In this document: in pieces, positions 5,270-60,030 of the stretch | Position numbering within the stretch: the first letter of the stretch is position 1 | Layout of the letters: each line of letters opens with the position of its first letter | Assembly: GCF_035084215.1 (NCBI RefSeq) | Contig: NC_090335.1 | Span: forward strand, 67,084,001 to 67,148,000 | DNA from: Heptranchias perlo | Lineage: Eukaryota | Reading direction: 5' to 3' | DNA length: 64,000 nucleotides | Notes under the pieces: generated by a model | Database searches by the model: none | Seen by the model: only the letters and a program-made list of their open reading frames with translations | Told to the model about the DNA's origin: nothing | Made by a program: the position numbers and the translations under genes

Positions 5270-5521
5270 AGGCATGATTTTGACCTGGAGCCGGGAACTC
5301 AGTGGGTGGGTTGATTTTCGCGTGGGAAACCCGGACGTGAAGTGAGTGTGTCGGAATCTGCGATCGCAACTTAATTGAAGGCAATTATTTTTGCTTCCGG
5401 GTTTCGCGACTCCAAGCCGCGCAGTGGGCACCATGCGCACCCGCATGACACAATCTGAAGTCCATTATTTAAAGGGCCAATGCAAAAATGGATTTTGCAG
5501 GCGAAAGGAGGAAATAAAGCT

Positions 5522-7121: not shown

Positions 7122-7745
7122 GCCAAAAGCATCTCAGCAGTCAGGGCAGGGATCTGAACAGCCTGCCATTACCTCTGCTGAAGTCACAGGGGATGCACCT
7201 TGTAGAAGCGGTAGGAAACGTTCATGCAATTGCAGTTCACCAAGAGTATGCACAAGGATGGCACAAGGATGGCTGATAAGTTGTTAAGTTTTCTTTTCTT
7301 TTGATTGGCACATTAAATGTATTGATTAGCATCACTTCCACGTCTTGGCCATTATTGCATCCTGAGTGTTAAGTCGCCCTTTCATTTGTTTCGTGATGAA
7401 TGCCAATACATGATGGTACCCATTAGGCAGATGTGCAATGGGTGTATGTGTGGTTGAAGGACCGTTTTGTGTAAAGGATGGGGGGATTGGTTGTAGTGGT
7501 GATTGTGCCAAGCAGCCTGAGTATCTCAATGTCTCTTTTTCCACTGTTATTAAGCGAAACTATGAGGGCATCCTTGGCACCCCAGGCAGCGATTTGTGCG
7601 GCTGCTCTGGCGGTGGATGCACCATTATCAGAATCCTCTTCCTCGTCCTCCCCCTTGTCCTCCTCATCCTCTTCCTCTTCTTCAATGTTGATGCCATCAG
7701 AGAATGCTTGATGAATGCCTTCGCCCTCCTCCACCCCGGGTACGG

Positions 7746-7818
7746 TAGCATAGTGGTTATGTTACTGGGCTAGTAATCCAGAGGCCTGGACTAAAATCCA
7801 GAGTCATGAGTTCAAATC
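7746..7818 (+). promoter_or_regulatory. RNA polymerase III type-2 internal promoter (A box TAGCATAGTGG 7746-7756; B box GTTCAAATC 7810-7818)
   Basis: Matches TRGCNNARYGG and GWTCRANNC consensus; duplicated anticodon-arm-like segment between the boxes. Confidence 0.75.
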
Positions 7819-8109
7819 CTGCCACGGCAGCTGGCGAATTTAAATTCAATTAATTAATTAAATTCAATTAATTTAATTAATTAAATTCAATTAATTAAAT
7901 AAAAATCTGGAATTAAAATACTAGTATCAGTAATGATGGCCATGAAACTACCAGATTGTCGTAAAAACCCATCTGGTTCACTAATGTCCTTGAGGGAAGG
8001 AAGCCTGCCGCCCTTACCCGGTCTGGCCAATATGTGACTCCAGACCCACAGCAATGTGGTTGATTCTTAATTGCCCTCTGAAATGGCCCAGCAAGCCACT
8101 CAGTTGTAA

Positions 8110-11031
8110 AATCTCGCTACGAAAAGTCAGAAAAAGAATAAAACCGGACGGACCACCCGGCATCGGACCACTCGGCACCGGACACGACAACGGCAAAACA
8201 CCAAGCCCAGTCGACCCTGCAAGGTCCTCCTTACTAACATCTGGGGACTTGTGCCAAAATTGGGAGAGCTGTCCCACAGACCAGTCAAGCAACAGCCTGA
8301 CATAGCCATACTCACAGAATCATACCTTTCAGCCAACGTCCCAGACTCTTCCATCACCATCCCTGGGTATGTCCTGTCCCACCGGCAGGACAGACCCACC
8401 AGAGGTGGCGGTACAGTGATATACAGTCAGGAGGGAGTGGCCCTGGGAGTCCTCAACATTGACTCTGGACCCCATGACATCTCATGGCATCAGGTCAAAC
8501 ATGGGCAAGGAAACCTCCTGCTGATTACCACCTACCGTCCTCCCTCAGCTGATGAATCAGTCCTCCTCCATGTTGAACGCCACTTGGAGGAAGCACTGAG
8601 GGGAGCAAGGGCACAAAATGTACTCTGGGTGGGGGACTTCAATGTCCATCATCAAGAGTGGCTCGGCAGCACCACTACTGACCGAGCTGGCCGAGTCCTG
8701 AAGGACATAGCTGCTGGACTGGGCCTGCGGCAGGTGGTGAGCGAACCAACAGGAGGGAAAAACTTACTTGACCTCGTCCTCACCAATCTACCTGTTGCAA
8801 ATGCATCTGTCCATGACAGTATTGGTAGGAGTGACCACCGCACAGTCCTCGTGGAGATGAAATCCCGTCTTCGCACTGAGGACACCATCCAACGTGTTGT
8901 GTGGCACTACCACCGTGCTAAATGGGATAGATTCAGAACAGATCCAGCAGCTCAAAAGTGGGCATCCATGAGGCGCTGTGGGCCATCAGCAGCAGCAGAA
9001 TTGTATTCCAGCACAATCTGTAACCTCATGGCCCGGCATATTCCTCACTCTACCATTACCAACAAGCCAGGGGATCAACCCTGGTTCAATGAGGAGTGTA
9101 GAAGAGCATGCCAGGAGCAGCACCAGGCGTACCTAAAAATGAGGTGCCAACCTGGTGAAGCGACAACTCAGGACTACATGCATGCTAAACAGCGGAAGCA
9201 ACATGCTATAGACAGAGCTAAGCGATTCCACAACCAACGGATCAGATCAAAGCTCTGCAGTCCTGCCACATCCAGTCGTGAATGGTGGTGGACAATTAAA
9301 CAACTAACGGGAGGAGGAGGCTCTGCAAACATCCCCATTCTCAATGATGGCGGAGTCCAGCACGTGAGTGCAAAAGACAAGGCTGAAGCGTTTGCAACCA
9401 TCTTCAGCCAGAAGTGCCGAGTGGATAATCCATCTCAGCCTCCTCCCAATATCCCCACCATCACGGAAGCCAGTCTTCGGCCAATTCGATTCACTCCACG
9501 TGATATCAAGAAACGGCTGAGTGCACTGGATACAGCAAAGGCTATGGGCCCTGACAACATCCCAGCTGTAGTGCTGAAGACTTGTGCTCCAGAACTAGCT
9601 GCGCCTCTCGCCAAGCTGTTCCAGTACAGCTACAACACTGGCATCCACCCGACAATGTGGAAAATTGCCCAGGTATGTCCTGTCCACAAAAAGCAGGACA
9701 AATCTAATCCGGCCAATTACCGCCCCATCAGTCTACTCTCAATCATCAGCAAAGTGATGGAAGGTGTCGTCGACAGTGCTATCAAGCAGCACTTACTCAT
9801 CAATAACCTGCTCACCGATGCTCAGTTTGGGTTCCGCCAGGACCACTCGGCTCCAGACCTCATTACAGCCTTGGTCCAAACATGGACAAAAGAGCTGAAT
9901 TCCAGAGGTGAGGTGAGAGTGACTGCCCTTGACATCAAGGCAGCATTTGACCGAGTGTGGCACCAAGGAGCCCTAGTAAAATTGAAGTCAATGGGAATCA
10001 GGGGGAAAACTCTCCAGTGGCTGGAGTCATACCTAGCACAAAGGAAGATGGTAGTGGTTGTTGGAGGCCAATTATCTCAGCCCCAGGGCATTGCTGCAGG
10101 AGTTCCTCAGGGCAGTGTCCTAGGCACAACCATCTTCAGCTGCTTCATCAATGACCTTCCCTCCATCATAAGGTCAGAAATGGGGATGTTCGCTGATGAC
10201 TGCACAGTGTTCAGTTCCATTCGCAACCCCTCAGATAATGAAGCAGTCCGAGCCTGCATGCAGCAAGACCTGGACAACATCCAGGCTTGGGCTGATAAGT
10301 GGCAAGTAACATTCGCGCCAGATAAGTGCCAGGCAATGACCATCTCCAACAAGAGAGAGTCTAACCACCTCCCCTTGACATTCAACGGCATTACCATCGC
10401 CGAATCCCCCACCATCAACATCCTGGGGGTCACCATTGACCAGAAACTTAACTGGACCAGCCATATAAATACTGTGGCTACGAGAGCAGGTCAGAGGCTG
10501 GGTATTCTGCGGCGAGTGACTCACCTCCTGACTCCCCAAAGCCTTTCCACCATCTACAAGGCACAAGTCAGGAGTGTGATGGAATACTCTCCACTTGCCT
10601 GGATGAGTGCAGCTCCAACAACACTCAAGAAGCTCGACACCATCCAAGATAAAGCAGCCCGCTTGATTGGCACCCCATCCACCACCCTAAACATTCACTC
10701 CCTTCACCACCGGCGCACTGTGGCTGCAGTGTGCACCATCCACAGGATGCACTGCAGCAACTCGCCAAGGCTTCTTCGACAGCACCTCCCAAACCCGCGA
10801 CCTCTACCACCTAGAAGGACAAGGGCAGCAGGCACATGGGAACAACACCACCTGCACGTTCCCCTCCAAGTCACACACCATCCTGACTTGGAAATATATC
10901 GCCGTTCCTTCATCGTCGCTGGGTCAAAATCCTGGAACTCCCTTCCTAACAGCACTGTGGGAGAACCGTCACCACACGGACTGCAGCGGTTCAAGAAGGC
11001 AGCTCACCACCACCTTCTCGAGGGCAATTAG
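8110..11031 (+). CDS. Uninterrupted APE endonuclease-reverse transcriptase ORF (open from 8110; no AUG until 8857)
   Basis: TNIWGL, LTES, GDFN, LDLVLT, SDH (APE); NYRPISLL, QFGFR, LDIKAAFDRVWH, GVPQGSVLG, FADD (RT); 926 aa from GTG 8251. Confidence 0.95.
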   Translation, partial: NLATKSQKKNKTGRTTRHRTTRHRTRQRQNTKPSRPCKVLLTNIWGLVPKLGELSHRPVKQQPDIAILTESYLSANVPDSSITIPGYVLSHRQDRPTRGGGTVIYSQEGVALGVLNIDSGPHDISWHQVKHGQGNLLLITTYRPPSADESVLLHVERHLEEALRGARAQNVLWVGDFNVHHQEWLGSTTTDRAGRVLKDIAAGLGLRQVVSEPTGGKNLLDLVLTNLPVANASVHDSIGRSDHRTVLVEMKSRLRTEDTIQRVVWHYHRAKWDRFRTDPAAQKWASMRRCGPSAAAELYSSTICNLMARHIPHSTITNKPGDQPWFNEECRRACQEQHQAYLKMRCQPGEATTQDYMHAKQRKQHAIDRAKRFHNQRIRSKLCSPATSSREWWWTIKQLTGGGGSANIPILNDGGVQHVSAKDKAEAFATIFSQKCRVDNPSQPPPNIPTITEASLRPIRFTPRDIKKRLSALDTAKAMGPDNIPAVVLKTCAPELAAPLAKLFQYSYNTGIHPTMWKIAQVCPVHKKQDKSNPANYRPISLLSIISKVMEGVVDSAIKQHLLINNLLTDAQFGFRQDHSAPDLITALVQTWTKELNSRGEVRVTALDIKAAFDRVWHQGALVKLKSMGIRGKTLQWLESYLAQRKMVVVVGGQLSQPQGIAAGVPQGSVLGTTIFSCFINDLPSIIRSEMGMFADDCTVFSSIRNPSDNEAVRACMQQDLDNIQAWADKWQVTFAPDKCQAMTISNKRESNHLPLTFNGITIAESPTINILGVTIDQKLNWTSHINTVATRAGQRLGILRRVTHLLTPQSLSTIYKAQVRSVMEYSPLAWMSAAPTTLKKLDTIQDKAARLIGTPSTTLNIHSLHHRRTVAAVCTIHRMHCSNSPRLLRQHLPNPRPLPPRRTRAAGTWEQHHLHVPLQVTHHPDLEIYRRSFIVAGSKSWNSLPNSTVGEPSPHGLQRFKKAAHHHLLEGN

Positions 11032-12096
11032 GGATGGGCAATAAATGCCGGCCTTGCCAGCGACGCCCATATCCCGTGAACGAATAAAAAAAAACAAAAA
11101 AAAACGCTCTGCTGCGCTGTGTTGTGCAGGATGCAGCACACCACGATTATTCTGGAGCCCCTCGCTGGCGAGAACTGAAGGGCACCCGAAGCACAACTTC
11201 AACATGTTCAATGACACAACTGGTGGTCATGTGGCTCTGGTTATATCGCTCTTGTGCCTTGTTGATGGAGTTCTTCACAGTTGTTATGTGCCATGTTTGC
11301 AGGGGGTATCCCTTGTCTCCAGTGAGCCATCCTATAAGTCTGTCTCTTTTTTTATTCGTTCATGGGATGTGGGCGTTGCTGGCGAGGCCAGCATTTATTG
11401 CCTATCCCTAATTCCCTTGAGAAGGTGGTGGTGAGCCGCCTTCTTGAACCGCTGCAGTCCGTGTGGTGATGGTTCTCCCACTGTGCTGTTAGGAAGGGAG
11501 TTCCAGGATTTTGACCCAGCGACGATGAAGGAACGACGGTATATTTCCAAGTCAGGATGGTGTGTGACTTGGAGGGGAACATGCAGGTGGTGTTGTTCCC
11601 ATGTGCCTGCTGCTCTTGTCCTTCTAGGTGGTAGAGGTCGCGGGTTTGGGAGGTGCTGTCGAAGAAGCCTTGGCGAGTTGCTGCAGTGCATCCTGTGGAT
11701 GGTACACAATACAGCCACTGTGCGCTGGTGGTGAAGGGAGTGAATGTTTAGGGTGGTGGATGGGGTGCGAATCAAGTGGGCTGCTTTGTCCTGGATGGTG
11801 TTGAGCTTATTGAGAGTTGTTGGAGCTGCACTCATCCAGGCAAGTGGAGAGTATTTCATCACACTCCTGACTTGTGCGTTGTAGATGGTGGAAAGGCTTT
11901 GGGGAGTCAGGAGGTGAGTCACTCGCCGCAGAATACCCAGCCTTTGACCTGCTCTTGTAGCCACTGTATTTATATGGCAGGTCCAGTTAAGTTTCTGGTC
12001 AATGGTGACCCCAGGATGTTGATGGTGGTGGATTCGGTGATGGTAATGCCGTTGAATGTCAAGCAGAGGCGGTTAGACTCTCTCTTGTTGGAGATG

Positions 12097-15073: not shown

Positions 15074-15513
15074 TCTCAACACAAGAACTCTCAGTCTCAA
15101 CACAAGAACTCTCAGTCTCAACACAGGAACTCTCAGTCTCAACACAAGAACTCTCAGTCTCAACACAAGAACTCTCAGTCTCAACACAAGAACTCTCAGT
15201 CTCAACACAAGAACTCTCAGTCTCAACACAAGAACTCTCAGTCTCAACACAAGAACTCTCAGTCTCAACACAAGAACTCTCAGTCTCAACACAAGAACTC
15301 TCAGTCTCAACACAAGAACTCTTAGTCTCAACACAAGAACTCTCAGTCTCAACACAAGAACTCTTAGTCTCAACACAAGAACTCTCAGTCTCAACACAAG
15401 AACTCTTAGTCTCAACACAGGAACTCTCAGTCTCAACACAGGAACTCTCAGTCTCAACACAGGAACTCTCAGTCTCAACACAAGAACTCTCAGTCTCAAC
15501 ACAAGAACTCTCA
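15074..15513. repeat. 21-bp minisatellite (TCTCAACACAAGAACTCTCAG) x about 21, upstream of the transposase
   Basis: Direct tandem repeats. Confidence 0.97.
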
Positions 15514-15910
15514 GCCAAACGCTTGCCTGACAGAACTGAGAGACCAGTTGCAATAACTGACCTTTTATTCAGATGGAGCAATCACAGGTTTAAAAACCCA
15601 AATTAACTGCAGCTGAATCTTGCCTCCATTTCACTGGCGAGATTCAAAAGCCCCGGCAAACCCATCCTGGAGACATTGATTCTGAAACTGATTCCAATTT
15701 AATTTAGAAAAAAACTATCTCAAGTATCTCAACTAGGTAAATTGCCCTGCTAACGATTCTGCCTGCCGGCGGTAATTGGGGGCGCGACATACGCGCATCC
15801 AAACGCGCCCACGTTGGAGCTGGGTTCCGGATGCGATCGCAAAAACTGGTATTTTCACCTCCCACCCGACTCCAACCCACCCGTTCTCAGGGGGTTAAAA
15901 TTCCCCCTGT

Positions 15911-17747: not shown

Positions 17748-19638
17748 GTTACTGAGAGGGGTAAGAGGTGTATCAGCAAGTGTTATTGAGCGAGGTCTAA
17801 GGTGTATCAGCAAGTGTTACTGAGAGAGGTGTGAGGTGTATCAGTAAGTGTTACTGAGAGAGGTGTCAGGTGTATCAGTAAGTGTTACTGGGAGAGGTGT
17901 CAGGTGTATCAGTAAGTGTTACTGGGAGAGGTGTGAGCTATATCAGTGTTACTGAGAGAGGTGTGAGGTGTGTCAGTAAGTGTTACTGAGAGAGGTGTGA
18001 GGTGTGTCAGTGTTGCTGAGAGAGGTGTGAGGTGTATCAGTGTTACTGAGAGAGGTGTGTCAGTAAGTGTTACTGAGAGAGGTGTGAGGTGTATCAGTGT
18101 TGCTGAGAGAGGTGTGAGGTGTGTCAGTGTTACTGAGAGAGGTGTGTCAGTAAGTGTTACTGAGAGAGGTGTGAGGTGTATCAGTGTTACTGAGAGAGGT
18201 GTGAGGTGTATCAGCAAGCGTTACTGAGGTGCGCGGTGTATCAGCAGGCGTTACTGAGGTGCGCGGTGTATCAGCAAGCGTTACTGAGGTGCGCGGTGTA
18301 TCAGCAAGCGTTACTGAGGTGCGCGGTGTATCAGCAAGCGTTACTGAGGTGCGCGGTGTATCAGCAGGCGTTACTGAGGTGCGCGGTGTATCAGCAGGCG
18401 TTACTGAGGTGCGCGGTGTATCAGCAGGCGTTACTGGGGTGCGCGGTGTATCAGCAAGCGTTACTGAGGTGCGCGGTGTATCAGCAGGCGTTACTGAGGT
18501 GCGCGGTGTATCAGCAAGCGTTACTGAGGTGCGCGGTGTATCAGCAGGTGTTACTGAGGTGTGAGATGTATCAGCAAGCGTTACTGGGGTGCGCGGTGTA
18601 TCAGCAAGCGTTACTGAGGTGCGCGGTGTATCAGCAAGCGTTACTGGGGTGCAGGGTGTATCAGCAAGCGTTACTGGGGTGCAGGGTGTATCAGCAAGCG
18701 TTACTGGGGTGCGCGGTGTATCAGCAAGCGTTACTGAGGTGCGCGGTGTATCAGCAAGCGTTACTGAGGTGCGCGGTGTATCAGCAAGCGTTACTGAGGT
18801 GCGCGGTGTATCAGCAGGCGTGACTGAGGTGCGCGGTGTATCAGCAAGCGTTACTGGGGTGCAGGGTGTATCAGCAAGCGTTACTGGGGTGCAGGGTGTA
18901 TCAGCAAGCGTTACTGGGGTGCAGGGTGTATCAGCAGGCGTTACTGGGGTGCAGGGTGTATCAGCAAGCGTTACTGGGGTGCAGGGTGTATCAGCAAGCG
19001 TTACTGGGGTGCAGGGTGTATCAGCAGGCGTTACTGGGGTGCAGGGTGTATCAGCAAGCGTTACTGGGGTGCAGGGTGTATCAGCAAGCGTTACTGAGGT
19101 GCGCGGTGTATCAGCAGGTGTTACTGAGGTGCGCGGTGTATCAGCAAGCGTTACTGGGGTGCAGGGTGTATCAGCAGGCGTTACTGGGGTGCAGGGTGTA
19201 TCAGCAAGCGTTACTGAGGTGCGCGGTGTATCAGCAAGCGTTACTGAGGTGCGCGGTGTATCAGCAAGCGTTACTGAGGTGCGCGGTGTATCAGCAGGCG
19301 TTACTGGGGTGCAGGGTGTATCAGCAGGCGTTACTGAGGTGTGAGGTGTATCAGCAAGCGTTACTGAGGTGCGCTGTGTATCAGCAAGCGTTACTGAGGT
19401 GCGCGGTGTATCAGCAAGCGTTACTGAGGTGCGCGGTGTATCAGCAGGCGTTACTGAGGTGCGCGGTGTATCAGCAGGCGTTACTGAGGTGCGCGGTGTA
19501 TCAGCAAGCGTTACTGGGGTGCGCGGTGTATCAGCAAGCGTTACTGGGGTGCGCGGTGTATCAGCAAGCGTTACTGAGGTGCGCGGTGTATCAGCAGGCG
19601 TTACTGAGTTGCGCGGTGTATCAGCAGGCGTTACTGGG
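17748..19638. repeat. Minisatellite: 28-32-bp variable units to ~18205, then homogeneous 30-bp units (GTTACTGAGGTGCGCGGTGTATCAGCAAGC)
   Basis: Direct tandem repeats. Confidence 0.97.
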
Positions 19639-20349
19639 AACATCAGTAGCATCAGTTATTAGCGGTGTATCTTCACTTAAAGCAGGTGACTGATGCATTG
19701 TTTGTCAGAACTAAAAAGTCATCACTTTTCCCCATGGGCAAAAGAGTGGAGGGGGAGGGGAGAATACTTGGTGTTTTCTCAAACGGTGGTTTTCCTCAAG
19801 ATCCAGGGTGTCATTGATGGCGCATATATAACCCAAACATGGTCCAGTCAACAACAGTACCTCATACATGAATTGTCAAGGATTCCATTCAATCAACATA
19901 CAGTGTGACCAGTAGTACAGAATAATACAGTGTGAATGCCCTCTTTGTTGATAGCAGCTGCTGACAGTTGTATTTTATTTTGGCCCATCATGCCCACTTT
20001 GTTTGCTGATAACCAGCAGGTCGGTGGGGGGAGTGTTGGCTGCTGGGTGACCAAAGTTACCCAGTGCAAATTTGGCTGATGACCCCTCCGTTGCATCCAA
20101 TTACAGCAATGGAACAAAGATACAACAAGGGAAGGCCTCTGTCAGATGCATTATCCAGCACGCCATAGATAGATAAAACAATGGTTCCAGTGCCTCGAGA
20201 GGTTATGTGTGCCCATCAGTATGACCCAAAGTTTCAAGCATTACCATGGTCTGCTGCATTCTTCAGAACCTCGGCATTGAAAGGTGCGTCTACATGGAGC
20301 CCTTTGGTGCAAGGGCCCTTCGACGAACAGGTGGAGGATGTCACTGGAG

Positions 20350-36795: not shown

Positions 36796-37154
36796 TTGCT
36801 ACTGTTGCTACTGTGCTTTACAGCCTTGACTTTTCTCTTTAGACTTATAAATTAACCATTACCTGAACCCTCCCCCCCGCCTCATTAGTTTAAAGTTCTA
36901 TCTAACGCCCTAGTTATTCGATTCGCCAGGACACTGGTCCCAGCCCGGTTTAAATGGAGCCCGTCCCATCAGAACAGCTCCCTCTCTCCCCAGTACTGGT
37001 GCCAGTGCCCCATGAATTGAAACCCCTGCCTCCCACACCACTCTTTCAGCCACGTATTTAACCATCTAATCTGTTTGTCCCTATGCCAATTTGCGCGTGG
37101 CTCAGGAAGTAATCCAGAGATTATTAACTTTGAGGTTCTGCTTTTTAATTTTTT

Positions 37155-39303
37155 TAAATTATTCGTTCACGGGATGTGGGCGTCGCTGGCAAGGCCAGCA
37201 TTTATTGTCCATCGCTAATTGCCCTCGAGAAGGTGGTGGTGAGCCGCCTTCTTGAACCGCTGCAGTCCGTGTGGTGACGGTTCTCCCACAGTGCTGTTAG
37301 GAAGGGAGTTCCAGGATTTTGACCCAGCGACAATGAAGGAACGGCGATATATTTCCAAGTCGGGATGGTGTGTGACTTGGAGGGGAACGTGCAGGTGGTG
37401 TTGTTCCCATGTGCCTGCTGCTCTTGTCCTTCTAGGTGGTAGAGGTCGCGGGTTTGGGAGGTGCTGTCGAAGAAGCCTTGGCAAGTTGCTGCAGTGCATC
37501 CTGTGGATGGTACACACAGCAGCCACAGTGCGCCGGTGGTGAAGGGAGTGAATGTTTAGTGTGGTGGATGGGGTGCCAATCAAGCGGGCTGCTTTATCTT
37601 GGATGGTGTCGAGCTTCTTGAGTGTTGTTGGAGCTGCACTCATCCAAGCAAGTGGAGAGTCTTCCATCACACTCCAGACTTGTGCCTTGTAGATGGTGGA
37701 AAGGCTTTGGGGAGTCAGGAGGTGAGTCACTCGCCGCAGAATACCCAGCCTCTGACCTGCTCTCGTAGCCACAGTATTTATATGGTTGGTCCAGTTAAGT
37801 TTCTGGTCAATGGTGACCCCAAGGATGTTGATGGTGGGGGATTCGGTGATGGTAATGCCGTTGAATGTCAGGGGGAGGTGGTTAGACTCTCTCTTGTTGG
37901 AGATGGTCATTGCCTGGCACTTATCTGGCGCGAATGTTACTTGCCACTTATCAGCCCAAGCCTGGATGTTGTCCAGGGCTCGGACTGCTTTATTATTTGA
38001 GGGGTTGCGAATGGAACTGAACATCCCCATTTCTGACCTTATGATGGAGGAAAGGTCATTGATGAAGCAGCTGAAGATGGTTGGGCCTAGGACACTGCCC
38101 TGAGGAACTCCTACAGCAATGTCCTGGGGCTGAGATGATTGGCCTCCAACAACCACTACCATCTTCCTTTGTACCAGGTATGATTCCAGCCACTGGAGAG
38201 TTTTCCCCCTGATTCCCATTGACTTCAATTTTACTAGGGCTCCTTGGTGCCACACTTGGTCAAATGCTGCCTTGATGTCAAGGGCAGTCACTCTCACCTC
38301 ACCTCTGGAATTCAGCTCTTTTGTCCATGTTTGGACCAACGCTGTAATGAGGTCTGGAGCCGAGTGGTCCTGGCGGAACCCAAACTGAGCATCGGTAAGC
38401 AGGTTATTGGTGAGTAAGTGCCGCTTGATAGCACTGTCGATGACACCTTCCATCACTTTGCTGATGATTGAGAGTAGACTGATGGGGTGGTAATTGTCCT
38501 GATTGGATTTGTCCTGCTTTTTGTGGACAGGACATACCTGGGCAATTTTCCACATTGTCGGGTAGATGTCAGTGTTGTAGCTGTACTGGAACAGCTTGGC
38601 TAGAGGCGCAGCTAGTTCTGGAGCACAAGTCTTCAGCACTACAGCTGGGATGTTGTCGGGGCCCATAGCCTTTGCTGTATCCAGTGCACTCAGCCGTTTC
38701 TTGATATCACATGGAGTGAATCGAATTGGCCGAAGACTGGCTTCTGTGATGGTGGGGATATCGGGAGGAGGCCGAGATGGATCATCCACTCGGCACTTCT
38801 GGCTGAAGATGGTTGCGAACGCTTCAGACTTGTCTTTTTCACTCACGTGCTGGACTCCGCCATCATTGAGGATGGGGATGTTTGCAGAGCCTCCTCCTCC
38901 CGTTAGTTGTTTAATTGTCCACCACCATTCACGACTGGATGTGGCAGGACTGCAGAGCTTTGATCTGATCCGTTGGTTGTGGAATCGCTTAGCTCTGTCT
39001 ATAGCATGTTGCTTCCGCTGTTTAGCATGCATGTAGTCCTGAGTTGTAGCTTCACCAGGTTGGCACCTCATTTTTAGGTACGCCTGGTGCTGCTCCTGGC
39101 ATGCTCTTCTACACTCCTCATTGAACCAGGGTTGATCCCCTGGCTTGTTGGTAATGGTAGAGTGAGGAATATGCCAGGCCATGAGGTTACAGATTGTGCT
39201 GGAATACAATTCTGCTGCTGCTGATGGCCCACAGCGCCTCATGGATGCCCAGTTTTGAGCTGCTCGATCTGTTCTGAATCTATCCCATTTAGCACGGTGG
39301 TAG
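37155..39303 (-). mobile_element. 5'-truncated young copy of the tRNA-headed LINE family, inserted in CR1 ORF1
   Basis: 702-aa ORF 37215-39323 nearly identical to the 8251 ORF from YHRAKWDRF onward. Confidence 0.96.
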
Positions 39304-40529
39304 TTTGGACCCCAGCTCCTCAAACTCTCTTAGCAGAACCTCATTCCTAGTTCAACCTATGTAGTTGGTTCCTATGTGGACTACGACAACTGGATCCTCC
39401 CCCTCCTCCTCCAAGTTCTTCTCCAGCTGCCAGGAGATGTCCTTAACCCTGGCACTGGGCAGGCAACACAGACTTCAGGACTCCCGGTCGCTGCTTCAGA
39501 GAACAGTGTCTATCCCCCTAACTATACTATCCCCTAACACTGCCACTCATTCCTTTCCTCTCCCCCCACTTGAATGGCCTCCTGTAGCAAGGTGCCTTGG
39601 TCAATTTGCCCATCCTCCCTGCAGTCTTTGTTCTCATCCATACAGGTAGCAAATACCTTGTACCCGTTGGACAAGGGCAAAGGCTGAGGCTCGACCACCA
39701 CTGCATCTGGGGTCCCCAGAGCTGCCTGACTCACAGTCACATCCTCCTGTGCCTCACCACTAACCAAATCTAAACCATACCTAACCTAAGTGGGTGTGAC
39801 TGCCTCCTGGGTCAAAATGTCCGGGTAACTCTCCTCCTCCCAGATGCGTCGCAAAGTCTGCACCTCGAACTCCAGCTCAACAACTTTGAGCCGACGTTTC
39901 TCAAGTTGCAGACACTCGCTGCGGATGTGGTTGCCTGGGTGACGGTGCTGTCCACAAACTCCCACATGCTGCAGTTATGGCACGCCACCTGCACTGCCAC
40001 CCCTTTTTAATCTTGTTTTTATTTATTTAATTAATCAGAAGTTTTTATCTAATTAATTCACTTGGTTTGTTTTTATTAAAAGAATTAATTTATCTACTTT
40101 AAATTATTTATTTAATAAAGTATGAGCAAGTTATCGGCTCCTAGCTTAAACCATTCCCCTAACTTAGAGAACAATAAAAAAATATTGCTCACCAACGAAT
40201 CACCTCCCTCTTGTCCTGTGGCATCACTGAGTCCGGGAGCTGTTTACCCAGCCCAGCGGACGCCACTGGAAAATCTCATGCTTTTTAAACCCTGTTTAAT
40301 CATTCTAGTTCTTTTTCTTAGATTCTTACCTCAATGCGTATCCTTACCTCAATACGTATCCTTGATACTTATTGCAGTTCCCATGCGATCGGCCGCTCCT
40401 TCCTCTCTGCGTCGTTTCTCACCCTTTCTGATTTCTGCCTGTGTTTGAGTTGGCTCAGCTCCCACACCTTATAGTCTCGGGCATCTGCTGCCGCCGCACT
40501 CGCTAGTTCCTGCTCCATCTAAACATCGA

Positions 40530-41947: not shown

Positions 41948-44311
41948 ACTATGTTGAAGTGAGGCATTTGTGGTTTTAGTGATGCAGTAATGAAACACTC
42001 CTAAAACTACGTTATGCAACACTCCATAACAGAGGACACCAGGACTGGTCAGTAAAATGTCTGCAGACGTTGAGCCATTTTAGGTACTATTATTGTGCAT
42101 TCTGTAGCAAACTTCCCAATGTTTACACTGGTTAAGTGGTTTAATGGCTGCTTGAAAGGCATTTAAAGATGATGATTGCGGGTGATTCGTGAATGGCTGC
42201 ATTTTTTTTGGTAACCAGTAGTGCAGCTGTATTCTTGGGAATCATACATTTCAAAAGTGTACGTTCCCCTAATTTCATTGGTGGTTTGTTAATTTCCACA
42301 CAAAAAAAACAAGGTGTTTTGCCCATTTTACAAAACAATAGGAATTTCAGCATAAGACTGTTATTGAACGAAAGGGAGGGTCTGTAAGAGGTGCTATTGG
42401 TACGAGGTATAAACACCAGCTATGTACTTAGTAAGTAGCTGGTTAAATATTAAACCTCATTTTGGTTCCTGCAGACTTTAGCCTCTAATTTAGGTACGAA
42501 AGTAATCCTTTTTTGATATGAGGTGGTATTGTTCATTCCTTTTGCCTGCTAATTTGCTGTTTCTCGAAGATCTTTCTCAGTAACGAGATTCACTTTTTTT
42601 TTGTACGATATTTTCATTTTGTTTCTTTATAAATTTACTTTGTTTACTCAGTAGGCTTTTCACTGATCAGGAAGTTTGAAAGCTGCTTCAGTTTTTAACT
42701 GCGAATGTTTTTCAAAAGGCCTTTGTCCAAGGCTTTGAATTGACCACCGCTCATTTGAGAGACGACTGGAAAGTTCTTTGATGATTTACTGGAACGTTGT
42801 GTTGACACTTCAAAGAAGATGAAAAAAATGAAAGCTTTTCTTGCTGCTTAGCAAGGCCGCAGATCAGGTATGAAGCGAACTTAATGTTTAAACACTAGCC
42901 ACTCGGTTAGAAGGCAGTCAATTTTTTAAAAGAAAAGGAACGTTTTTTTTTATTCGTTCATGGGATGTGGGCGTCGCTGGCCAGGCCGGCATTTATTGCC
43001 CATCCCTAATTGCCCTCGAGAAGGTGGTGGTGAGCCGCCTTCTTGAACCGCTGCAGTCCGTGTAGTGAAGGTTCTCCCACAGTGCTGTTCGGAAGGGAGT
43101 TCCAGGAATTTGACCCAGCGACGATGAAGGAACGGTGATATATTTCCAAGTCGGGATGGTGTGTGACTTGGAGGGGAACGTGCAGGTGGTGTTGTTCCCA
43201 TGTGCCTGCTGCTCTTGTCCTTCTAGGTGGTAGAGGTCGCGGGTTTGGGAGGTGCTGTCGAAGAAGCCTTGGCGAGTTGCTGCAGTGCATCCTGTGGATG
43301 GTACACACTGCAGCCACTGTGCGCCGGTAGTGAAGGGAGTGAATGTTTAGGGTGGTGGAAAGGGTGCCAATCAAGCGGGCTGCTTTGTCCTGGATGGTGT
43401 CGAGCTTCTTGAGTGTTGGAGCTGCACTCATCCAGACAAGTGAAGAGTATTCCATCACACTCCTGACTTGTGCCTTTGTAGATGGTGGAATGGCTTTGGG
43501 GAGTCAGCAGGTGAGTCACTCGCCGCAGAATACCCAGCCTCTGACCTGCTCTTGTAGCCACACTATTTATATGGCTGGTCCAGTTAAGTTTCTGGTCAAT
43601 GGTGACCCCCCCCAGGATGATGATGGTGGGGGATTTAGCGATGGTAATGCCGTTGAATGTCAAGCAGAGGTGGTTCGACTCTCTCTTGTTGGAGATGGTC
43701 ATTGCCTGGCACTTGTCTGGCGCAAATATTACTTGCCACTTATGAGCCGAAGCCTGGATGTTGTCCAGGTCTTGCTGCATGCGGGCTCAGACTGCTTCAT
43801 TATTTGAGGGGTTGCGAATGGAACTGCACACTGCAATCATCAGCGAACATCCCCATTTCTGACCTTATGATGGAGGGAAGGTCATCGATGAAGCAGCTGT
43901 AGATAGTTGGGCCTGGGACACTGCCCTGAGGAACTCCTGCAGCAATGTCCTGGGGCTGAGATGATTGGCCTCCAACAACCACTACCATCTTCCTTTGTGC
44001 TAGGTATGACTCCAGCCACTGGAGAGTTTTCCCCCTGATTCCCATTGACTTCAATTTTACTCAGGCTCCTTGGTGCCACACTCGGTCAAATGCTGCCTTG
44101 ATGTCAAGGGCAGTCACTCTCACCTCACCTCTGGAATTCAGCTCTTTTGTCCATGTTTGGACCAAGGCTGTAATGAGGTCTGGAGCTGAGTGGTTCTGGC
44201 GGAACCCAAACTGAGCATCGGTGTGCAGGTTATTGGTGAGTAAGTGCTGCTTGATAGCACTGTCCACGACACCTTCCATCACTTTGTTGATGATTGAGAG
44301 TAGACTGACGG

Positions 44312-47300
44312 GGAGTAGGGACAAACCGGGGAACTACAGGCCAGTGAGCCTAACATCAGTGGTAGGAAAATTATTGGAAAAAATTCTGAAGGACAAAATT
44401 AGTCTCCACTTGGAGAAGCAAGGATTAATCAGGGATAGTCAACATGGCTTTGTCAAGGGAAGATCATGTCTGACTAATTTGATTGAATTTTTTGAGGGGG
44501 TGACTAGGCGTGTGGATGAGGGTAACGCAATAGATGTGGTATACATGGATTTCAGTAAGGCCTTCGATAAAGTCCCCCACAGGAGACTGGTCAAGAAGGT
44601 ACGAGCCCATGGAATCCAGGGTGCCTTGGCACTTTGGATACAAAACTGGCTTAGTGGCGACACTACAGACTTCCTACAAAAACTCAGTACCCACGGACCA
44701 GTTGAACCAGGAACACTTCTCACCACGATGGACGTCTCGGCACTATACACCAGTATCCCCCACGATGACGGCATCGCTGCGACAGCATCAATACTCAACA
44801 CCAAAAACAGCCAATCTCCGGAAGCCATCCTACAACTCATCCGCTTCATCCTGGATCACAATGTCTTCACCTTCGATAACCAGTTCTTTACCCAAACACA
44901 CGGAACAGCCATGGGGACCAAATTCGCACCCCAATACGCCAACATTTTCATGCACAAGTTCGAGCAGGACTTCTTCACTGCACAAGACCTCCAACCAACA
45001 CTATACACCAGATACATCGACGACATTTTCTTTCTATGGACCCACGGCAAGGAATCACTAAAGAGACTACACGATAACATCAACAAGTTCCATCCCACCA
45101 TCAAGCTCACCATGGACTACTCCTCAGAATCAGTTTCTTTCTTGGACACACGAATCTCCATCAAAGACGGGCACCTCAGCACCTCACTCTACCACAAGCC
45201 CACGGACAACCTCACGATGCTCCACTTTTCCAGCTTCCACCCTAACCACGTCAAAGAGGCCATCCCCTATGGACAGGCCCTGCGAATACACAGGGTCTGC
45301 TCAGACGAGGAGGAACGCGATGGACACCTACAGACGCTGAAAGACGCCCTAGTAAGAACGGGATATGACGCTCAACTCATCGATCGACAGTTCCGACGGG
45401 CCACAGCAAAAAATCGCATAGACCTCCTCAGGAGACTAACACGGGACGCAACCAACAGAGTACCCTTTGTCGTCCAGTACTTCCCCGGAGCGGAGAAACT
45501 ACGCCATGTTCTCCGCAGCCTTCAACATGTCATCAATGAGGACAAACACCTCGCTATGGCCATCCCCACACCTCCACTACTCGCCTTTAAACAGCCACCC
45601 AACCTCAAACAGACCATCGTTCGCAGCAAATTACCTAGCTTTCAAGAGAACAGCGTCCACGACGCCACACAACCCTGCCACGGTAACCTCTGCAAGACAT
45701 GCCAGATCATCGACACAGATACCACCATCACACGAGAGGACACCACCCACCAGGTGCATGGTTCATACTCCTGTGACTCGGCCAACGTTGTCTACCTCAT
45801 ACGTTGCAGGAAAGGATGCCCCAGAGCATGGTACATTGGCGAGACCATGCAGACGCTGCGACAACGGATGAACGGACACCGCGCAACAATCGCCAAACAG
45901 GAGGGTTCCCTCCCAGTCGGGGAACACTTCAGCAGTCATGGACATTCATCCACCGACCTTCGGGTAAGCGTACTCCAAGGCGGCCTTCGAGACACACGAC
46001 AACGCAAAATCGTCGAGCAGAAATTGATAGCCAAGTTCCGCCCATGAGCACCCATGAGGACGGCCTCAACCGGGATCTTGGGTTCATGTCACGCTACACG
46101 TTACCCCACCAGCGAACAAATGTTATCTGTTTTTAATATAATGGGTCATTTGCTGGCTTTCTCTGCCTTCCGGATGTTTCTGCCTCTCTCTGTTTTTTTT
46201 CCCTGTTTGTTTTTTTGTTGAATGTGTATTCGGGGGTTCTGCAGGTGACACCTCTCTGTCTGAACACGGTGATTGCCTTGGCAACGGGCAGTTGCAGGGG
46301 CATTCTGTAAACACTAGGGATTGTTCTATATGTATAAATGCGTAGGCTTCAAGGAGCTCCTGAACATTAACCTGAGGAAGGAAGAAGTCTCCGAAAGCTT
46401 GTGAATTTAAAATAAAATTGCTGGACTATAACTTGGTGTTGTAAAATTGTTTACAATTGTCAACCCCAGTCCATCACTGGCATCTCCACATCATTAGTGG
46501 CAGAAGGCAGAGGGTGATGGTCGAAGGTTGTTTTTGTGACTGGAAGCCTGTGGCCAGTGGGGTACCACAGGGATCGGTGCTGGGTCCCTTGCTGTTTGTG
46601 GTCTACATTAATGACTTGGATATGAATGTAAAAGGTATGATCAGTAAGTTCGCTGATGATACAAAGATTGGTAGGGTGGTAAATAGCGAGGAGGATAGCC
46701 TCAGTCTGCAGGACGATATAGATGGGTTGGTCAGATGGGCGGAACAGTGGCAAATGGAATTTAACCCGGAAAAGTGCGAGGTGATGCACTTTGGAGGGAC
46801 TAACAAGGCAAGGGAATACACAATGAATGGGAGGACCCTAGGCAAGACAGAGGGTCAGAGGGATCTTGGTGTGCAAGTTCACAGATCCCTGAAGGCGGCG
46901 GAACAGGTAGATAAGGTGGTAAAGAAGGCATATGGGATACTTGCCTTTATTAGCCGAGGCATAGAATATAAGAGCAAGGAGGTTATGATGGAGCTGTATA
47001 AAACACTGGTTAGGCCACAGCTGGAGTACTGTGTGCAGTTCTGGTCGCCGCACTGCAGGAAGGATGTGATCGCTTTGGAGAGGGTGCAGAGGAGATTCAC
47101 CAGGATGTTACCAGGATGCTACCAGGGCTGGAGCGCTTCAGCTATGAAGAGAGACTGGGAAGATTGGGTTTGTTTTCCTTGGAGCAGAGGAGGCTGAGGG
47201 GGGACATGATTGAGGTGTACAAAATTATGAGGGGCACAGATAGGATGGATACTAAGGAGCTTTTTCCCTTCGTTGAGGGTTCTATAACAAGGGGACATAG

Positions 47301-47583: not shown

Positions 47584-48390
47584 TAATTGGCCGGATTGGA
47601 TTTGTCCTGCTTTTTGTGGACAGGACATACCTGGGCAATTTTCCATATTGTTGGGTAGATGCCAGTGTTGTAGCTGTACTGGAACAGTTTGGCTAGAGGC
47701 GCAGCAAGGTCTTCAGTACTACAGCCGGAATGTTGTCGGGGCCCAAAGCTTTTGCTGTATCCAGTGCACTCAGCCATTTCTTGATATCACGTGGAGTGAA
47801 TCGAATTGGCTGAAGACTGACTGCTGTGATGGTGGGGATATCGGGAGGAGGCCAAGATGGATCATCCACTCGGCACTTCTGGCTTAAGATGTTTGCAAAC
47901 GCTTCAGCCTTGTCTTTTGCACTCACATGTTGGACTCCGCCATCATTGAGGATGGGGATGTTTGCAGAGCCTCCTCCTCCCGTTAGTTGTTTAATTGTCC
48001 ACCACTATTCACGACTGGATGTGGCAGGAATGCAGAGCTTTGATCTGATCCATTGGTTGTGGAATCGTTTAGCTCTGTCTATAGCATGTTGCTTCTGCTG
48101 TTTAGCATGCGTGTAGTCCTGAGTTGTAGCTTCACCAGGTTGGCACCTCATTTTTAGCTACGTTGCCGCACATAACAAGATTTTGAGAGAATATCATCAA
48201 TTTAAGTACAAAATGATGTGAGAAGAATAATCCATGAGACTCCAGGCTGGTTTATTTAACTGGTCACAGAAGGGTCCGTTTGCATCAGAGCAACAGATCC
48301 TCCATTTTTGACAAGCATTTTGTAAGTGAAGCATGTGTATTACAGAGTAAGGGTTTTTTGGTTTGGTTTCTCCGTGGCTGGGAGAACTTT

Positions 48391-53852: not shown

Positions 53853-54149
53853 TTTGTGTGCGTAAGTATCAGGCTTTTTAAAAAAAACACAATCACACTT
53901 AACCCATACCTAGCCACACTACACAGGAGATACACAGTAGAGTCCTGCTTAGACTCACGTCCCTTTTGAAGTCTTTATCATATCGAACCCAGATGTTACA
54001 TCCTCAAGGCAAAATTATGAGTACAGCATGACTGTGTAGTGTTTGAATGCCAAGAGGCTTTTTGTTACCAATTTCCTCTTTTCTTCAAGGTACGATCTGT
54101 TGCTCGGCTCAATGTTACTTTTATCTAATATCAACTATTTCTCTTTTAG

Positions 54150-54464
54150 GTATGTGTTTATCTACTAGAATCATAGAAGGTCCAAAAAGTGCTTTTGCTT
54201 TGCTTAACAGTGATGCTGCATTCAACTGCACAGTGTCTCAGCCCTGGTTGATTATAATCTGGATAATGGGTAAGACACCTGTCCTTTCTGTAACACCAGA
54301 GGGACCAATTATTACGGACTCTCAGTTTGGACAACGCAATTATACAACTGAGAACACGTTTACTTCGGAACTTGTCATCTCAGCAGTGACCTTGAACAAC
54401 AATGTGACCGTGAAGTGCAGTCTCCAAACTGAGGGAAGTCAGCAGGCAGATTTGTTTGTGCAAG
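54150..54464 (+). CDS. IGSF5: IGSF5-like exon: Ig domain 1
   Basis: IIEGPKS…AAFNCTVSQPW…PIITDSQF…FTSELVI…VKCSLQ resembles mammalian IGSF5 (IEGPQN…RFNCTVSQGW…PIITNDRF…FTSEMII…RCSLQ); TTTTAG acceptor, G|GTCAGT donor, phase 1-1. Confidence 0.92.
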
Positions 54465-56868: not shown

Positions 56869-57305
56869 GGGTATGGTAAAGTGAGTGTTATGTTACTGGG
56901 CTAGTAATCCAGAGGCCAAGACTAATAAATCCCAAGAGTTCAAATCCCACCATGGCAAGTTGAAAATTTGAATTCAATTTAAAAAAAAATCTGGAAATAA
57001 AAAGCTGGCATCAGTATAAGTGACCATGAAGCTGTCTGGTTGTCGTAAAAACCCAATTGGTTCACTGACGTCCTTTAGGGAAAGAAACCTGCCGTCCTTA
57101 CCCGGTCTGGCCTATGTGTGACTCCAGTTCTACACCAACGTGGTTGACTCTTAACTACAATCGCAAGTGGTCTAGCAAGCCACACAGTTGTATCAAAAAG
57201 CTACCAGCAGTTCAAGTAGAAGGCCCACCACTACCTTCTCGGGGAAATTAGGGATGGGCAATAAATGCCGGCCTTGCCAGTGACGCCTGAGAATGAATAA
57301 TATAA
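56869..57305 (+). mobile_element. Bipartite tRNA-SINE made of the 5' ~380 bp and 3' ~105 bp of the 7738-11104 LINE
   Basis: Collinear with 7738-8120, then jumps at GCTAC|CAGCAG (57204/57205) to LINE position 10984 and continues to the tail. Confidence 0.9.
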
Positions 57306-57480
57306 AACATACTCCCGCATGTGTGAGTAAGGTGACGGGAGGAAGAAGTTCTGTAATAAATAAAGCATTTGAACTAATTTTAGAATAGTTTTAATACAAG
57401 GCTTAAAAAAAAATAAGTGGCAAATTTATCTCTGATGAAACACTGTATAAAACAAAATCTCTGCTGTTATTATGCCACAG

Positions 57481-58194: not shown

Positions 58195-60030
58195 ATGATA
58201 GAATCATACAGTCATAGAATGGTTACAGCACAGAAGGAGGCCAAATGGCCTATCAAGCCCATGCCTGCTTTTATAAGAGCAATCCAGTTAGTCCCAATCC
58301 CCCGCTCTTTCCCCGTAGCCCTGAATTTTTTTTCCCTTCAAGTGTTTATCCAATTCCTTTTTGAAAGCCATGATTGAATCTGCCTCCACCACCCTTTCAG
58401 ACAGCGCATTCTAGATCATAACTACTCACTGCGTAAAAATGTTTCTCTTCATGTCGCCTTTGGTTCTTTCACCAATCACCTTAAATCTGTGTCCTCTGGT
58501 TCTCACCCCAATGGAAGAGTTTCTCTTTATTTACTTTATCTGAACCCTTCTTGATTTTGAACACTTCTATCAAATCTCCTCTTAACCTTCTCGGCTCTAA
58601 GGAGAACAATCCCAGCTTCTCCAGTCTATCCACGTAACTGAAGTCCCTCATCCCTGGAACCATTCTAGTAAATCTTTTCTGCACCCTCTCTAAGGCCTTC
58701 ACATCCTTCCTAAAGTGTGGTGCCCAGAATTGGACACAATACTCCAGCTGTGACCGAACCAGTGTTTTATAAAGGTTCAACATAACTTCCTTGCTTTTGT
58801 ACTCTATGCCTCTAATTATAAAGCCTAGGGTCCCATATGCTTTTTTAAACGCTTTCTCAACCTGTCCTGCCACCTGCAAAGGTTTGTGCACATATACCCC
58901 CAGGCCTCTCTGTTCCTGCACCCCCTTTACAATTGTATCCTTTAGTTTATATTGCCTCTCCTCGTTCTTCCTACCAAAATGTATCACTTTGCACTTCTCT
59001 GCGTTAAATTTCATCTGCCATGTGTCCGCCCATTCCACCAGCCTGTTTATGTCCTCTTGAAGTCTATTACTATCCTCCTCACTGTTTACTACACTTCCCA
59101 GTTTTGTGTCATCTACAAATTGTTCAGTTCCATTCGCAACCCCTCAGATAATGAAGCAGTCCATGCCTGCATGCAGCAAGACCTGGACAACATCCAGGCT
59201 TGGTAAGTGGCAAGTAACATTTGCGCCAGGCAAGTGCCAGGCAATGACCATCTCCAACAAAAGAAAGTCTAACTACCTCCCCTTTACATTCAACGGCATT
59301 TCCATCGTTGAATCCTCCACCATCAACATCCTGGGAGTCACCATTGACCAAAAACTTAAATGGACCAGCCACATAAATACTGTGGCTATAAGAGCAGGTC
59401 AGAGGCTGGGTATTCTGCGGCAAGTGACTCACCTCCTGACTCCCCAAAGTCTTTCCACCATCTACAAGGCACAAGTCAGGAGTGTGATGGAATACTCTCC
59501 ACTTGCCTGGATGAGTGCAGCTCCAACACTCAAGAAGCTCGACACCATCCAGGACAAAGCAGCCCTCTTGATTGGCACCCCATCCACCACCCTAGACATT
59601 CACTCCCTTCACCATCGGGGCACCGTGGCTGCAGTGTGTACCATCAACAGGACGCACTGCAGCAACTCGCCAAGGCTTCTTCGACAGCACCTCCCAAACC
59701 TGCAACCTGAAGGACAAGGGCAGCAGGCACATTGGAACAATACCACCTGCATGTTCCCCTCCGAGTCACACACCATTCCGACTTGGAAATGTATCGCCGT
59801 TCCTTCATTGTCACTGGGTCAAAATCCTGGAACTCCCTACCTAACAACACTGTGGGAGAACCTTCACTACATGGACTGCAGTGGCTCGCCACCACCTTCT
59901 CAAGGGCAATTAGGGATGGGCAATAAATGCCGGCCTTGCCAGCGACGCCCACACCCCATGAACGAATAAAAAAAATATTTTGAAATTGTGTCCTGTACAC
60001 CGAAGTCCAAGTCATTAATATATATCAAAA
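58195..60030 (-). mobile_element. CR1 3' fragment interrupted by a LINE
   Basis: ORF 58481-59038; sequence resumes at 59976. Confidence 0.9.
59121..59975 (+). mobile_element. 5'-truncated copy of the tRNA-headed LINE family
   Basis: Matches 10208-11090; A tail. Confidence 0.93.

Follow-up and report, generated by a model that had tools for sequence, protein, structure and literature searches.

A stretch of DNA from Heptranchias perlo (contig NC_090335.1, positions 67,084,001 to 67,148,000 of the forward strand, termed here the window and comprising 64,000 nucleotides) contains a short interspersed element (SINE) at 56869-57305, the two ends of which match the two ends of a long interspersed element (LINE) at 7738-11095. 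The LINE carries a tRNA-like head at its 5' end and, by collinearity of its 5' region with published consensuses, is a member of the elasmobranch Zenon lineage of the CR1 group. Taken alone, an origin of the SINE through internal deletion is very probable, the parent being an older subfamily of tRNA-headed Zenon LINEs rather than the copy at 7738. The explanation favored here joins this old deletion to a second proposition--that RNA polymerase III (Pol III) transcribes the LINE from end to end--and, in this combined form, is considered probable rather than secure, based as it is on patterns within the sequences. Papers are cited below by accession.

Structure and parentage of the SINE

The first-pass annotation of the window had described the SINE as collinear with the head, and then directly with the tail, of the LINE at 7738. 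Local alignment bears this out: SINE positions 56869-57204 match LINE positions 7738-8120 at 277 of 338 aligned bases (82%), with a single gap of about 34 nt, which falls within an AT-rich block; SINE positions 57205-57309 then match LINE positions 10984-11096 at 91 of 105 bases (87%). In a self-BLAST, the head core matches with an E-value of 2.7e-52 and the tail with one of 1.9e-22, and all of the sequence motifs quoted in the annotation are present. Because the shared head reaches about 240 nt past the tRNA-like region, this match is not the generic tRNA likeness that the annotation had named as a refuting outcome. The tRNA nature of the head is real but weak in the window copy: ARAGORN called no tRNA within the window, and the Rfam tRNA score (18.7 bits for positions 7600-8300) lies below the cut-off of 29, the remaining Rfam matches being at chance level. 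Elsewhere in the 3.25-Gb genome, six distinct heads were called as tRNAs by ARAGORN. When the head was compared with three of the genome's own tRNA isotypes (Gln, Thr and Cys), tRNA-Gln was closest, with 47-50 of about 70 positions identical (z 4.8-8.7).

The head is the normal 5' end of this LINE. Its junction with the open reading frame (ORF) has 3,955 exact matches in the genome (control, 0), so that the head is indeed attached to LINE ORFs elsewhere, as the annotation's proposal needed it to be. A query consisting of head and ORF was covered from base 45 or earlier at 39 places, the window included, among the best 40 of 4,042 candidates, these 40 having been scored. With an endonuclease-only query, which was used so that copies would not be selected for the head, 23 of 29 other copies extend to the common 5' end or fall short of it by no more than 15 nt, whereas 4 break off inside the head and 2 at or behind the ORF start. 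This 5' end is sharp and fixed, and lies just ahead of the A and B boxes, both of which are intact in all 28 young copies having a 5' end. An origin of the LINE head as a chimera or through a single template switch was considered and is rejected by the thousands of head-ORF copies and by their common 5' end. The head has a doubled anticodon-like arm; natural single-arm copies occur among both LINEs and SINEs. Within the second of these hairpins (7786-7801), two apparent compensatory changes separate, by eye, Squalus-type from Carcharodon-type Zenons, hinting at selection on RNA structure.

Zenon LINEs that lack ORF1 and end in poly(A) are reported from sharks and rays by Stuart et al. (2026; PMC13343379), and the LINE agrees in having apurinic/apyrimidinic (AP) endonuclease and reverse transcriptase (RT) domains within one ORF, no ORF1 and a poly(A) tail. 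All seven published elasmobranch consensuses (from five species, four sharks and one ray), when judged by eye over their first 400 nt, start with the head, retain A- and B-like boxes while the stretch between these varies, and lack TTTT; the three hagfish and coelacanth Zenons have no head and carry runs of four T's (T4) or longer over the same distance. The union of head and ORF dates back to the shark-ray ancestor. Contigs of four other organisms cover 30 of 30 bins of the LINE; in a quick RT tree, the LINE protein falls within a 33-row clade (support of 98 by SH-aLRT, an approximate likelihood ratio test), apart from shark CR1 and together with homologues of about 960 aa; and a word-index protein search gave 16 matches, mostly to distant or exonised pieces. 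Viral contigs contained no match to the element, and the A/B-box head was not matched upstream of 80 metagenomic relatives, many of which are partial and none of which is close. The tRNA head of the shark Zenon appears to be undescribed until now: 'tRNA', 'promoter' and 'polymerase III' are absent from the accessible text of PMC13343379, as is 'tRNA' from its supplement rows; the accessible portions of PMC7245038 and PMC11481361 contain nothing on this element; and the literature search, which lay outside Repbase, Dfam, SINEBase and most subscription papers, returned no description of this head, of this SINE or of a Pol III-driven autonomous LINE.

Because the SINE has diagnostic bases of its own, an older LINE was looked for. 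A pattern joining a SINE-type head end to the ORF start occurs at 11 loci, several of them nearly full length, which are 76-84% identical to the young LINE; a pattern taken from the ORF side occurs at 31 places, 29 of them new. Among these 29 old LINEs, the head lies upstream in 25, with a SINE-type end in 14 and a young-type end in none. In the head, 256 columns are common to SINE, old LINE and young LINE; at 36 of 36 diagnostic columns the SINE majority equals the old-LINE majority and both differ from the young one, with none against (the last six head columns are partly circular for the 11 loci, these having been found through the SINE-type head end). Likewise, in a tree of heads (27 SINE, 16 old, 10 young), SINE and old-LINE heads intermix, and the SINE-type tail stands behind LINE ORF sequence in 28 of 30 loci fetched from 404 matches. 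A deletion of the young LINE at 7738 itself is ruled out by the diagnostic columns; the annotation's pairing of the two elements thus stands as regards lineage, both being Zenon, and falls as regards the immediate parent. Given that the head-ORF link is common to sharks and a ray, and that the SINE matches one local subfamily, we infer that the SINE derives from the LINE. This supports the first of the two origins that the annotation had entertained, internal deletion of a tRNA-headed LINE. As for the second, capture of a SINE head by the LINE, this SINE is not the donor, head and ORF having been joined since the shark-ray ancestor, though the head itself probably arose through an ancient capture, its source being a tRNA gene or a SINE now extinct.

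The SINE founds a family of its own. Head and tail occur together in 30 of 30 fetched loci, drawn from the best 40 of 10,799 candidates, which were scored; among 31 aligned copies, one breakpoint is common to 22 of 26 parsed junctions. The junction has 97 exact matches in the genome (control, 0) and is bridged by single contigs in two other organisms. SINE copies differ from their own majority by 7.6%, versus 1.1% for the young LINE. Deletion products with other breakpoints exist both in this genome and in other organisms; five further loci (L130, L151, L212, L216 and L211) hold head-plus-tail products with differing breakpoints, some of which retain part of the ORF. At another locus (L056:1390-1500), a stretch of about 80 nt upstream of a SINE copy is similar to the beginning of the ORF in a more distant relative; the 8.5 kb around that copy (L219) gave no further BLAST match.

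The LINE family is young: 37 aligned copies lie about 1.0-1.1% from the column majority, and 13 of these have an unbroken frame. A stop codon lies directly upstream of the main ORF, unbroken copies open at the same position, and the first in-frame ATG, at 8857, comes only behind the endonuclease. A short AUG-started frame that overlaps the ORF start was considered as a mini-ORF1; it is present in young copies and, by eye, interrupted in several published consensuses, and is not claimed as such. Target-site duplications were not found above control in 25 young copies, 14 of which have none at all; one 19-mer duplication sits in a flanking tandem repeat. Two young copies (L065 and L091), as judged by eye, sit within older members of their own family and lack a target duplication, one insertion showing an apparent small target deletion. 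The window also contains at least six 5'-truncated pieces of the family, at 85-96% identity (4339-4932, 11347-14196, 37142-39304, 42942-44313, 47584-48162 and 59113-59977).

T runs on the sense strand of the LINE and the question of its polymerase

The LINE exhibits two features of a type-2 Pol III unit: the A and B boxes lie inside it, just behind a 5' end that does not vary, and the sense strand has no T4 run. This strand contains no TTTT versus 22 AAAA, 11 CCCC and 7 GGGG runs, and 7 TTT versus 53 AAA runs. TTTT is also absent from 31 of 39 fetched LINE copies; in the remaining eight it lies in insertions, in flank or in AT-rich spots, at no shared place. Within the same genome, T4 density is 4.3 per kb in 28 CR1 frames and 2.2 per kb, at lower T content, in 20 frames of an element that, from its motifs, we take to be Penelope-like. 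The observed-to-expected ratio for TTT is 0.40 in the LINE versus 0.77-1.42 in 80 metagenomic LINEs. At synonymous T/C sites, T is used at 5 of 41 positions where it makes TTT versus 190 of 479 elsewhere (odds ratio (OR) 0.21, p=0.0003); the corresponding OR is 0.99 in one CR1 frame and 0.95 in one Penelope-like frame, and in 71 metagenomic frames (those of the 80 loci with a frame longer than 1.2 kb) the lowest value is 0.40 and the median 0.91. Near-terminators (four T's in five) number 2 in the LINE versus 22 and 16 in the comparison elements, and the T-run deficit is strand-specific and strongest for T. The old subfamily, which is 6.4% from the young one, has no majority T4, its decayed copies having gained 0.48 per kb (counted by projection on a young copy, insertions being ignored). 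In the flank, the first T4 occurs within 400 nt in 32 of 36 copies. Depletion of Phe (2.0% versus about 4%) was also considered as a sign of T avoidance and set aside as weak, some homologues being equally low (P0019, P0022, P0038 and P0046, at 1.5-2.3%). Overall, the terminator deficit provides indirect, but controlled, evidence suggesting that the head serves a protein-coding element as its promoter for Pol III.

The mechanism proposed is as follows. TFIIIC would bind the A and B boxes of the LINE head, and Pol III would initiate at the first G; in the absence of an internal stop signal, the polymerase could then read 3.3 kb, pass through the A tail and terminate where the flank has its first T run. 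About 75% of the Pol III transcripts made from a U6 promoter end at a single T4 (PMC6023835), so that a few such runs within the element would abolish full-length RNA. At what are the weakest steps, the uncapped RNA would be translated at a low level from a non-AUG start, by reinitiation or through a frameshift, and the LINE protein would copy its own RNA by target-primed reverse transcription. Since the promoter of the LINE would already be of the Pol III type, any deletion that left the initial 340-380 nt and the final 110 nt in place would produce a complete SINE at once. RNAs made by Pol III retrotranspose in the absence of ORF1p (PMC2666806), which would fit an ORF1-less element, though not specifically. 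A broader proposal, which we rate only a little better than even, is that in sharks and rays an autonomous, coding LINE exchanged, before the two lineages parted, its Pol II promoter for one of the Pol III type derived from a tRNA, purged terminators over 3.3 kb, is translated uncapped and without AUG, and sheds SINEs by deletion--that is, that it acts as an autonomous SINE.

Various observations weigh against transcription by Pol III or against a simple deletion. The absence of TTTT is not significant on its own (P=0.09 by codon shuffling, P=0.07 under a dinucleotide model), and 1 of the 80 metagenomic LINEs is likewise T4-free over 1.5 kb. Avoidance of other triplets occurs as well, both of CCC in the same ORF (OR 0.54, p=0.011) and of AAA in the Penelope-like ORF (OR 0.44, p=0.0009). 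The TTT test amounts to 41 sites of one lineage, the copies of which are not independent, and so represents one data point; the old and young subfamilies are too close (about one T4 expected) to serve as a second test. Phe-poor homologues exist, and all Zenons lack ORF1, the head-less ones included. Seven of 22 scored SINE copies carry a run of four or five T's at one head site, probably through expansion after insertion, as is suggested by the rise of T runs at the tail with age (a single T in 29 of 36 young versus 6 of 16 old copies). The tail, moreover, is not cleanly diagnostic: in three columns old LINE and SINE agree, in two young and old, in two young and SINE, and in one all differ. 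Finally, Pol III RNAs have no cap and are doubted as messengers, and certain Pol III promoters drive Pol II as well (PMC6023835).

These last points lead to the one alternative of real weight, which is nonetheless unlikely: the SINE is the same deletion product, but of a LINE made by Pol II, either from the head or by read-through, the head then being either a relic of some capture or a chromatin element, and the scarcity of T runs a consequence of composition or of the avoidance of splice or poly(A) signals. LINEs are indeed stated to be Pol II transcripts (PMC10886601, PMC5786205), the former adding that Pol III limits SINE length; translation needs a cap; and both the marginal P of 0.07-0.09 for TTTT and the mild CCC avoidance suit such an account. 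It predicts poorly, however, that the Pol II-type controls of the same genome and 71-80 other LINEs lack such TTT avoidance, and that the deficit is confined to one strand and strongest for T. Nor does it sit well with the persistence of the boxes across sharks and ray while the spacer changes, or with the T4 or longer runs of the head-less hagfish and coelacanth Zenons, both judged by eye on the published consensuses.

A role of the head as RNA is improbable. The head would then be either a tRNA mimic within a longer host transcript, cut by RNase P (as by the ribozyme for R2), or a device for ribosome loading, and the sharp 5' end near the start of a mature tRNA, together with the apparent compensatory pair changes in the second hairpin, would be explained. 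Yet pairing is poor in the acceptor and T stems, shuffled sequences fold as well as the head does (z -1.0), heads with a single arm occur among LINEs and SINEs alike, and the T-run deficit would be left unaccounted for; in addition, cleavage by RNase Z would be likely to remove the ORF. Folding the head, the 5' region and the tail as RNA gave no z-score below -1.1 and thus no support for a special structure. Even less probable is the reverse order of events, in which the starting point was a conventional SINE, made up of a tRNA head, a body of its own and a Zenon tail, from which the LINE took over the 5' 370 nt; the present SINE would then be a survivor of the donor family. The absence of the head from non-elasmobranch Zenons does imply a single gain, the SINE copies exceed the young LINE in age (by the divergences given above), and SINE and old-LINE heads resemble each other too closely for either to be placed before the other in this genome. 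Against this, the SINE head corresponds to one local LINE subfamily, including the doubled arm that is common with Squalus and not with other sharks or the ray, and hence nests inside LINE head diversity; the junction retains bases from the ORF start; and several other breakpoints exist. Deletion within a Pol III-transcribed Zenon LINE is the reading retained in what follows.

Feature coordinates and neighboring elements

Table 1. Coordinates, within the window, of the LINE, the SINE and their parts
Feature	Position	Strand	Basis or remark
Full-length young Zenon-type LINE, 3,358 bp	7738..11095	+	tRNA-headed, one ORF, poly(A) tail, no sense-strand TTTT
LINE A box, 8 nt from 5' end	7746..7756	+	28/28 young copies with 5' end; fits consensus TRGCNNARYGG
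Two tandem anticodon-arm-like hairpins (7765-7781, 7786-7801)	7765..7801	+	sequence, Rfam alignment
LINE B box	7808..7819	+	letters identical to the genome's tRNA-Gln genes
AT-rich quasi-palindromic block	7836..7907	+	length varies among copies
Short AUG-started frame overlapping main ORF start in another frame	8054..8305	+	83 aa; 76 or 83 in most copies
Single 973-codon ORF	8110..11031	+	AP endonuclease aa 43-243, reverse transcriptase aa 528-776
3' end common to LINE and SINE	10984..11095	+	alignment
SINE-like internally deleted derivative (head and tail), very probably of older tRNA-headed Zenon LINE subfamily	56869..57305	+	alignment, copies
tRNA-like part of SINE head	56869..56957	+	sequence; 50/69 aligned to the genome's tRNA-Gln
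SINE A box, decayed in window copy	about 56877-56888	+	sequence
SINE B box	56936-56947	+	sequence
Remainder of LINE 5' region retained in SINE, ending just inside ORF start	56958..57204	+	alignment
LINE 3' tail in SINE: ORF end, 3' untranslated region, decayed A tail	57205..57305	+	alignment
AATAAA in SINE tail	57260	+	
Deletion junction, join GCTAC|CAGCAG	57204/57205	+	sequence

Upstream of the LINE, a Myb/SANT-like domain (PF13873) is encoded at 5459-5977 (+); together with the LINE flank at 7400-7737, it may belong to a Harbinger-like DNA transposon into which the LINE inserted. A retroelement that we take, from its motifs, to be Penelope-like lies at about 44656-45679, nested in a CR1 element, and is very young: 40 scored copies are 98-100% identical, and three stand in tandem at 3.9-kb spacing at C7:99.40-99.41 Mb. 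Tandem repeats occupy 1-906, 15073-15514 and 17748-19639, with periods of about 62, 63 and 30 bp, respectively. At 54047-54400 (+), an open frame resembles an immunoglobulin-like exon by eye, without a Pfam match. Beyond the window, large tandem arrays of tRNA genes occur at C23:1.8-18 Mb and C38:2.5-8.9 Mb, with tRNA-Cys at a spacing of about 2.36 kb and tRNA-Gln-like matches at about 3.11 kb.

Comparison with known systems

Textbooks reserve Pol III for short non-coding RNAs, and the LINE/SINE divide is usually drawn as that between Pol II-transcribed, coding elements and Pol III-transcribed, non-coding ones. A recently amplified, T4-free LINE of 3.3 kb with A and B boxes would, if transcribed as proposed, break this rule; its RNA would be a naturally occurring Pol III messenger, and cap-independent, AUG-independent LINE translation would become testable. 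What is new here is a sense strand of 3.36 kb that lacks TTTT and avoids TTT. The proposed one-step route, by which head, body and tail of a SINE all come from its partner LINE, would extend the bipartite-LINE model of SINE bodies. Should Pol II be the polymerase after all, the 5' end of the shark Zenon has still gone unannotated until now, and short derivatives of the element have likely been filed as unrelated SINEs. A precedent for such translation is R2, a LINE that has no Pol II promoter of its own and is translated from uncapped RNA; R2 is site-specific and is cut by a ribozyme from a Pol I co-transcript, whereas the Zenon LINE occurs at scattered sites and contains its A and B boxes internally.

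The closest known elements are the elasmobranch Zenons (SquAca_Zenon-1/2/3, CarCar, ScyCan, RhiTyp and HypSab_Zenon-1; PMC13343379), which resemble the LINE in their 5' 400 nt (by eye), in a length of about 3.3 kb, in having endonuclease, RT and poly(A) and in lacking ORF1; the accessible portions of their description mention neither the tRNA head, the A and B boxes, the T-run deficit nor a partner SINE. An architectural precedent is RTE-1_DAn along with related elements (Repbase; PMC5786205), in which a LINE contains tRNA-like sequence matching many SINE2 elements, though in another clade and host. The tRNA-headed SINEs HE1, SacSINE1 and CmiSINEs likewise come from cartilaginous fish (PMC5499810, PMC3747384) but, going by their descriptions, are set apart by V, Deu or CORE bodies and by HER1, CR1-4_DR-like or L2-2_CM tails; in the accessible portions of these sources, a 5' end in common with the partner LINE is mentioned for none of them. 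The bipartite SINEs Bov-tA, Mar-1, AfroSINE and CoeSINE4 also combine a tRNA head with LINE 5' and LINE 3' sequence (PMC5786205), but the head was added afterwards, by template switch, to a deleted LINE, and only RTE and Vingi donate the bodies; here, by contrast, an autonomous element of the CR1 group itself carries the head.

The SINE consequently straddles two categories. Like a SINE2, it has a tRNA-derived head with A and B boxes and is short, non-coding and amplified as a unit with a LINE-derived tail; unlike one, it has no independent head absent from its partner, the head here belonging to the LINE. As in a short internally deleted element (SIDE), both ends come from one autonomous LINE (36 of 36 columns for the head, mixed columns for the tail). 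The nearest such case is Persaeus, a SIDE of the lepidopteran (butterfly) Zenon (PMC6740152), which is similarly an amplified internal deletion retaining the 5' untranslated region and ORF start joined to the ORF end and 3' untranslated region. Persaeus, however, is described as having no tRNA likeness and no Pol III promoter, and the lack of a small-RNA head, by which it was classified, does not hold for the SINE: here the parent supplies a putative promoter of this kind, and the product is both a SIDE and a SINE.
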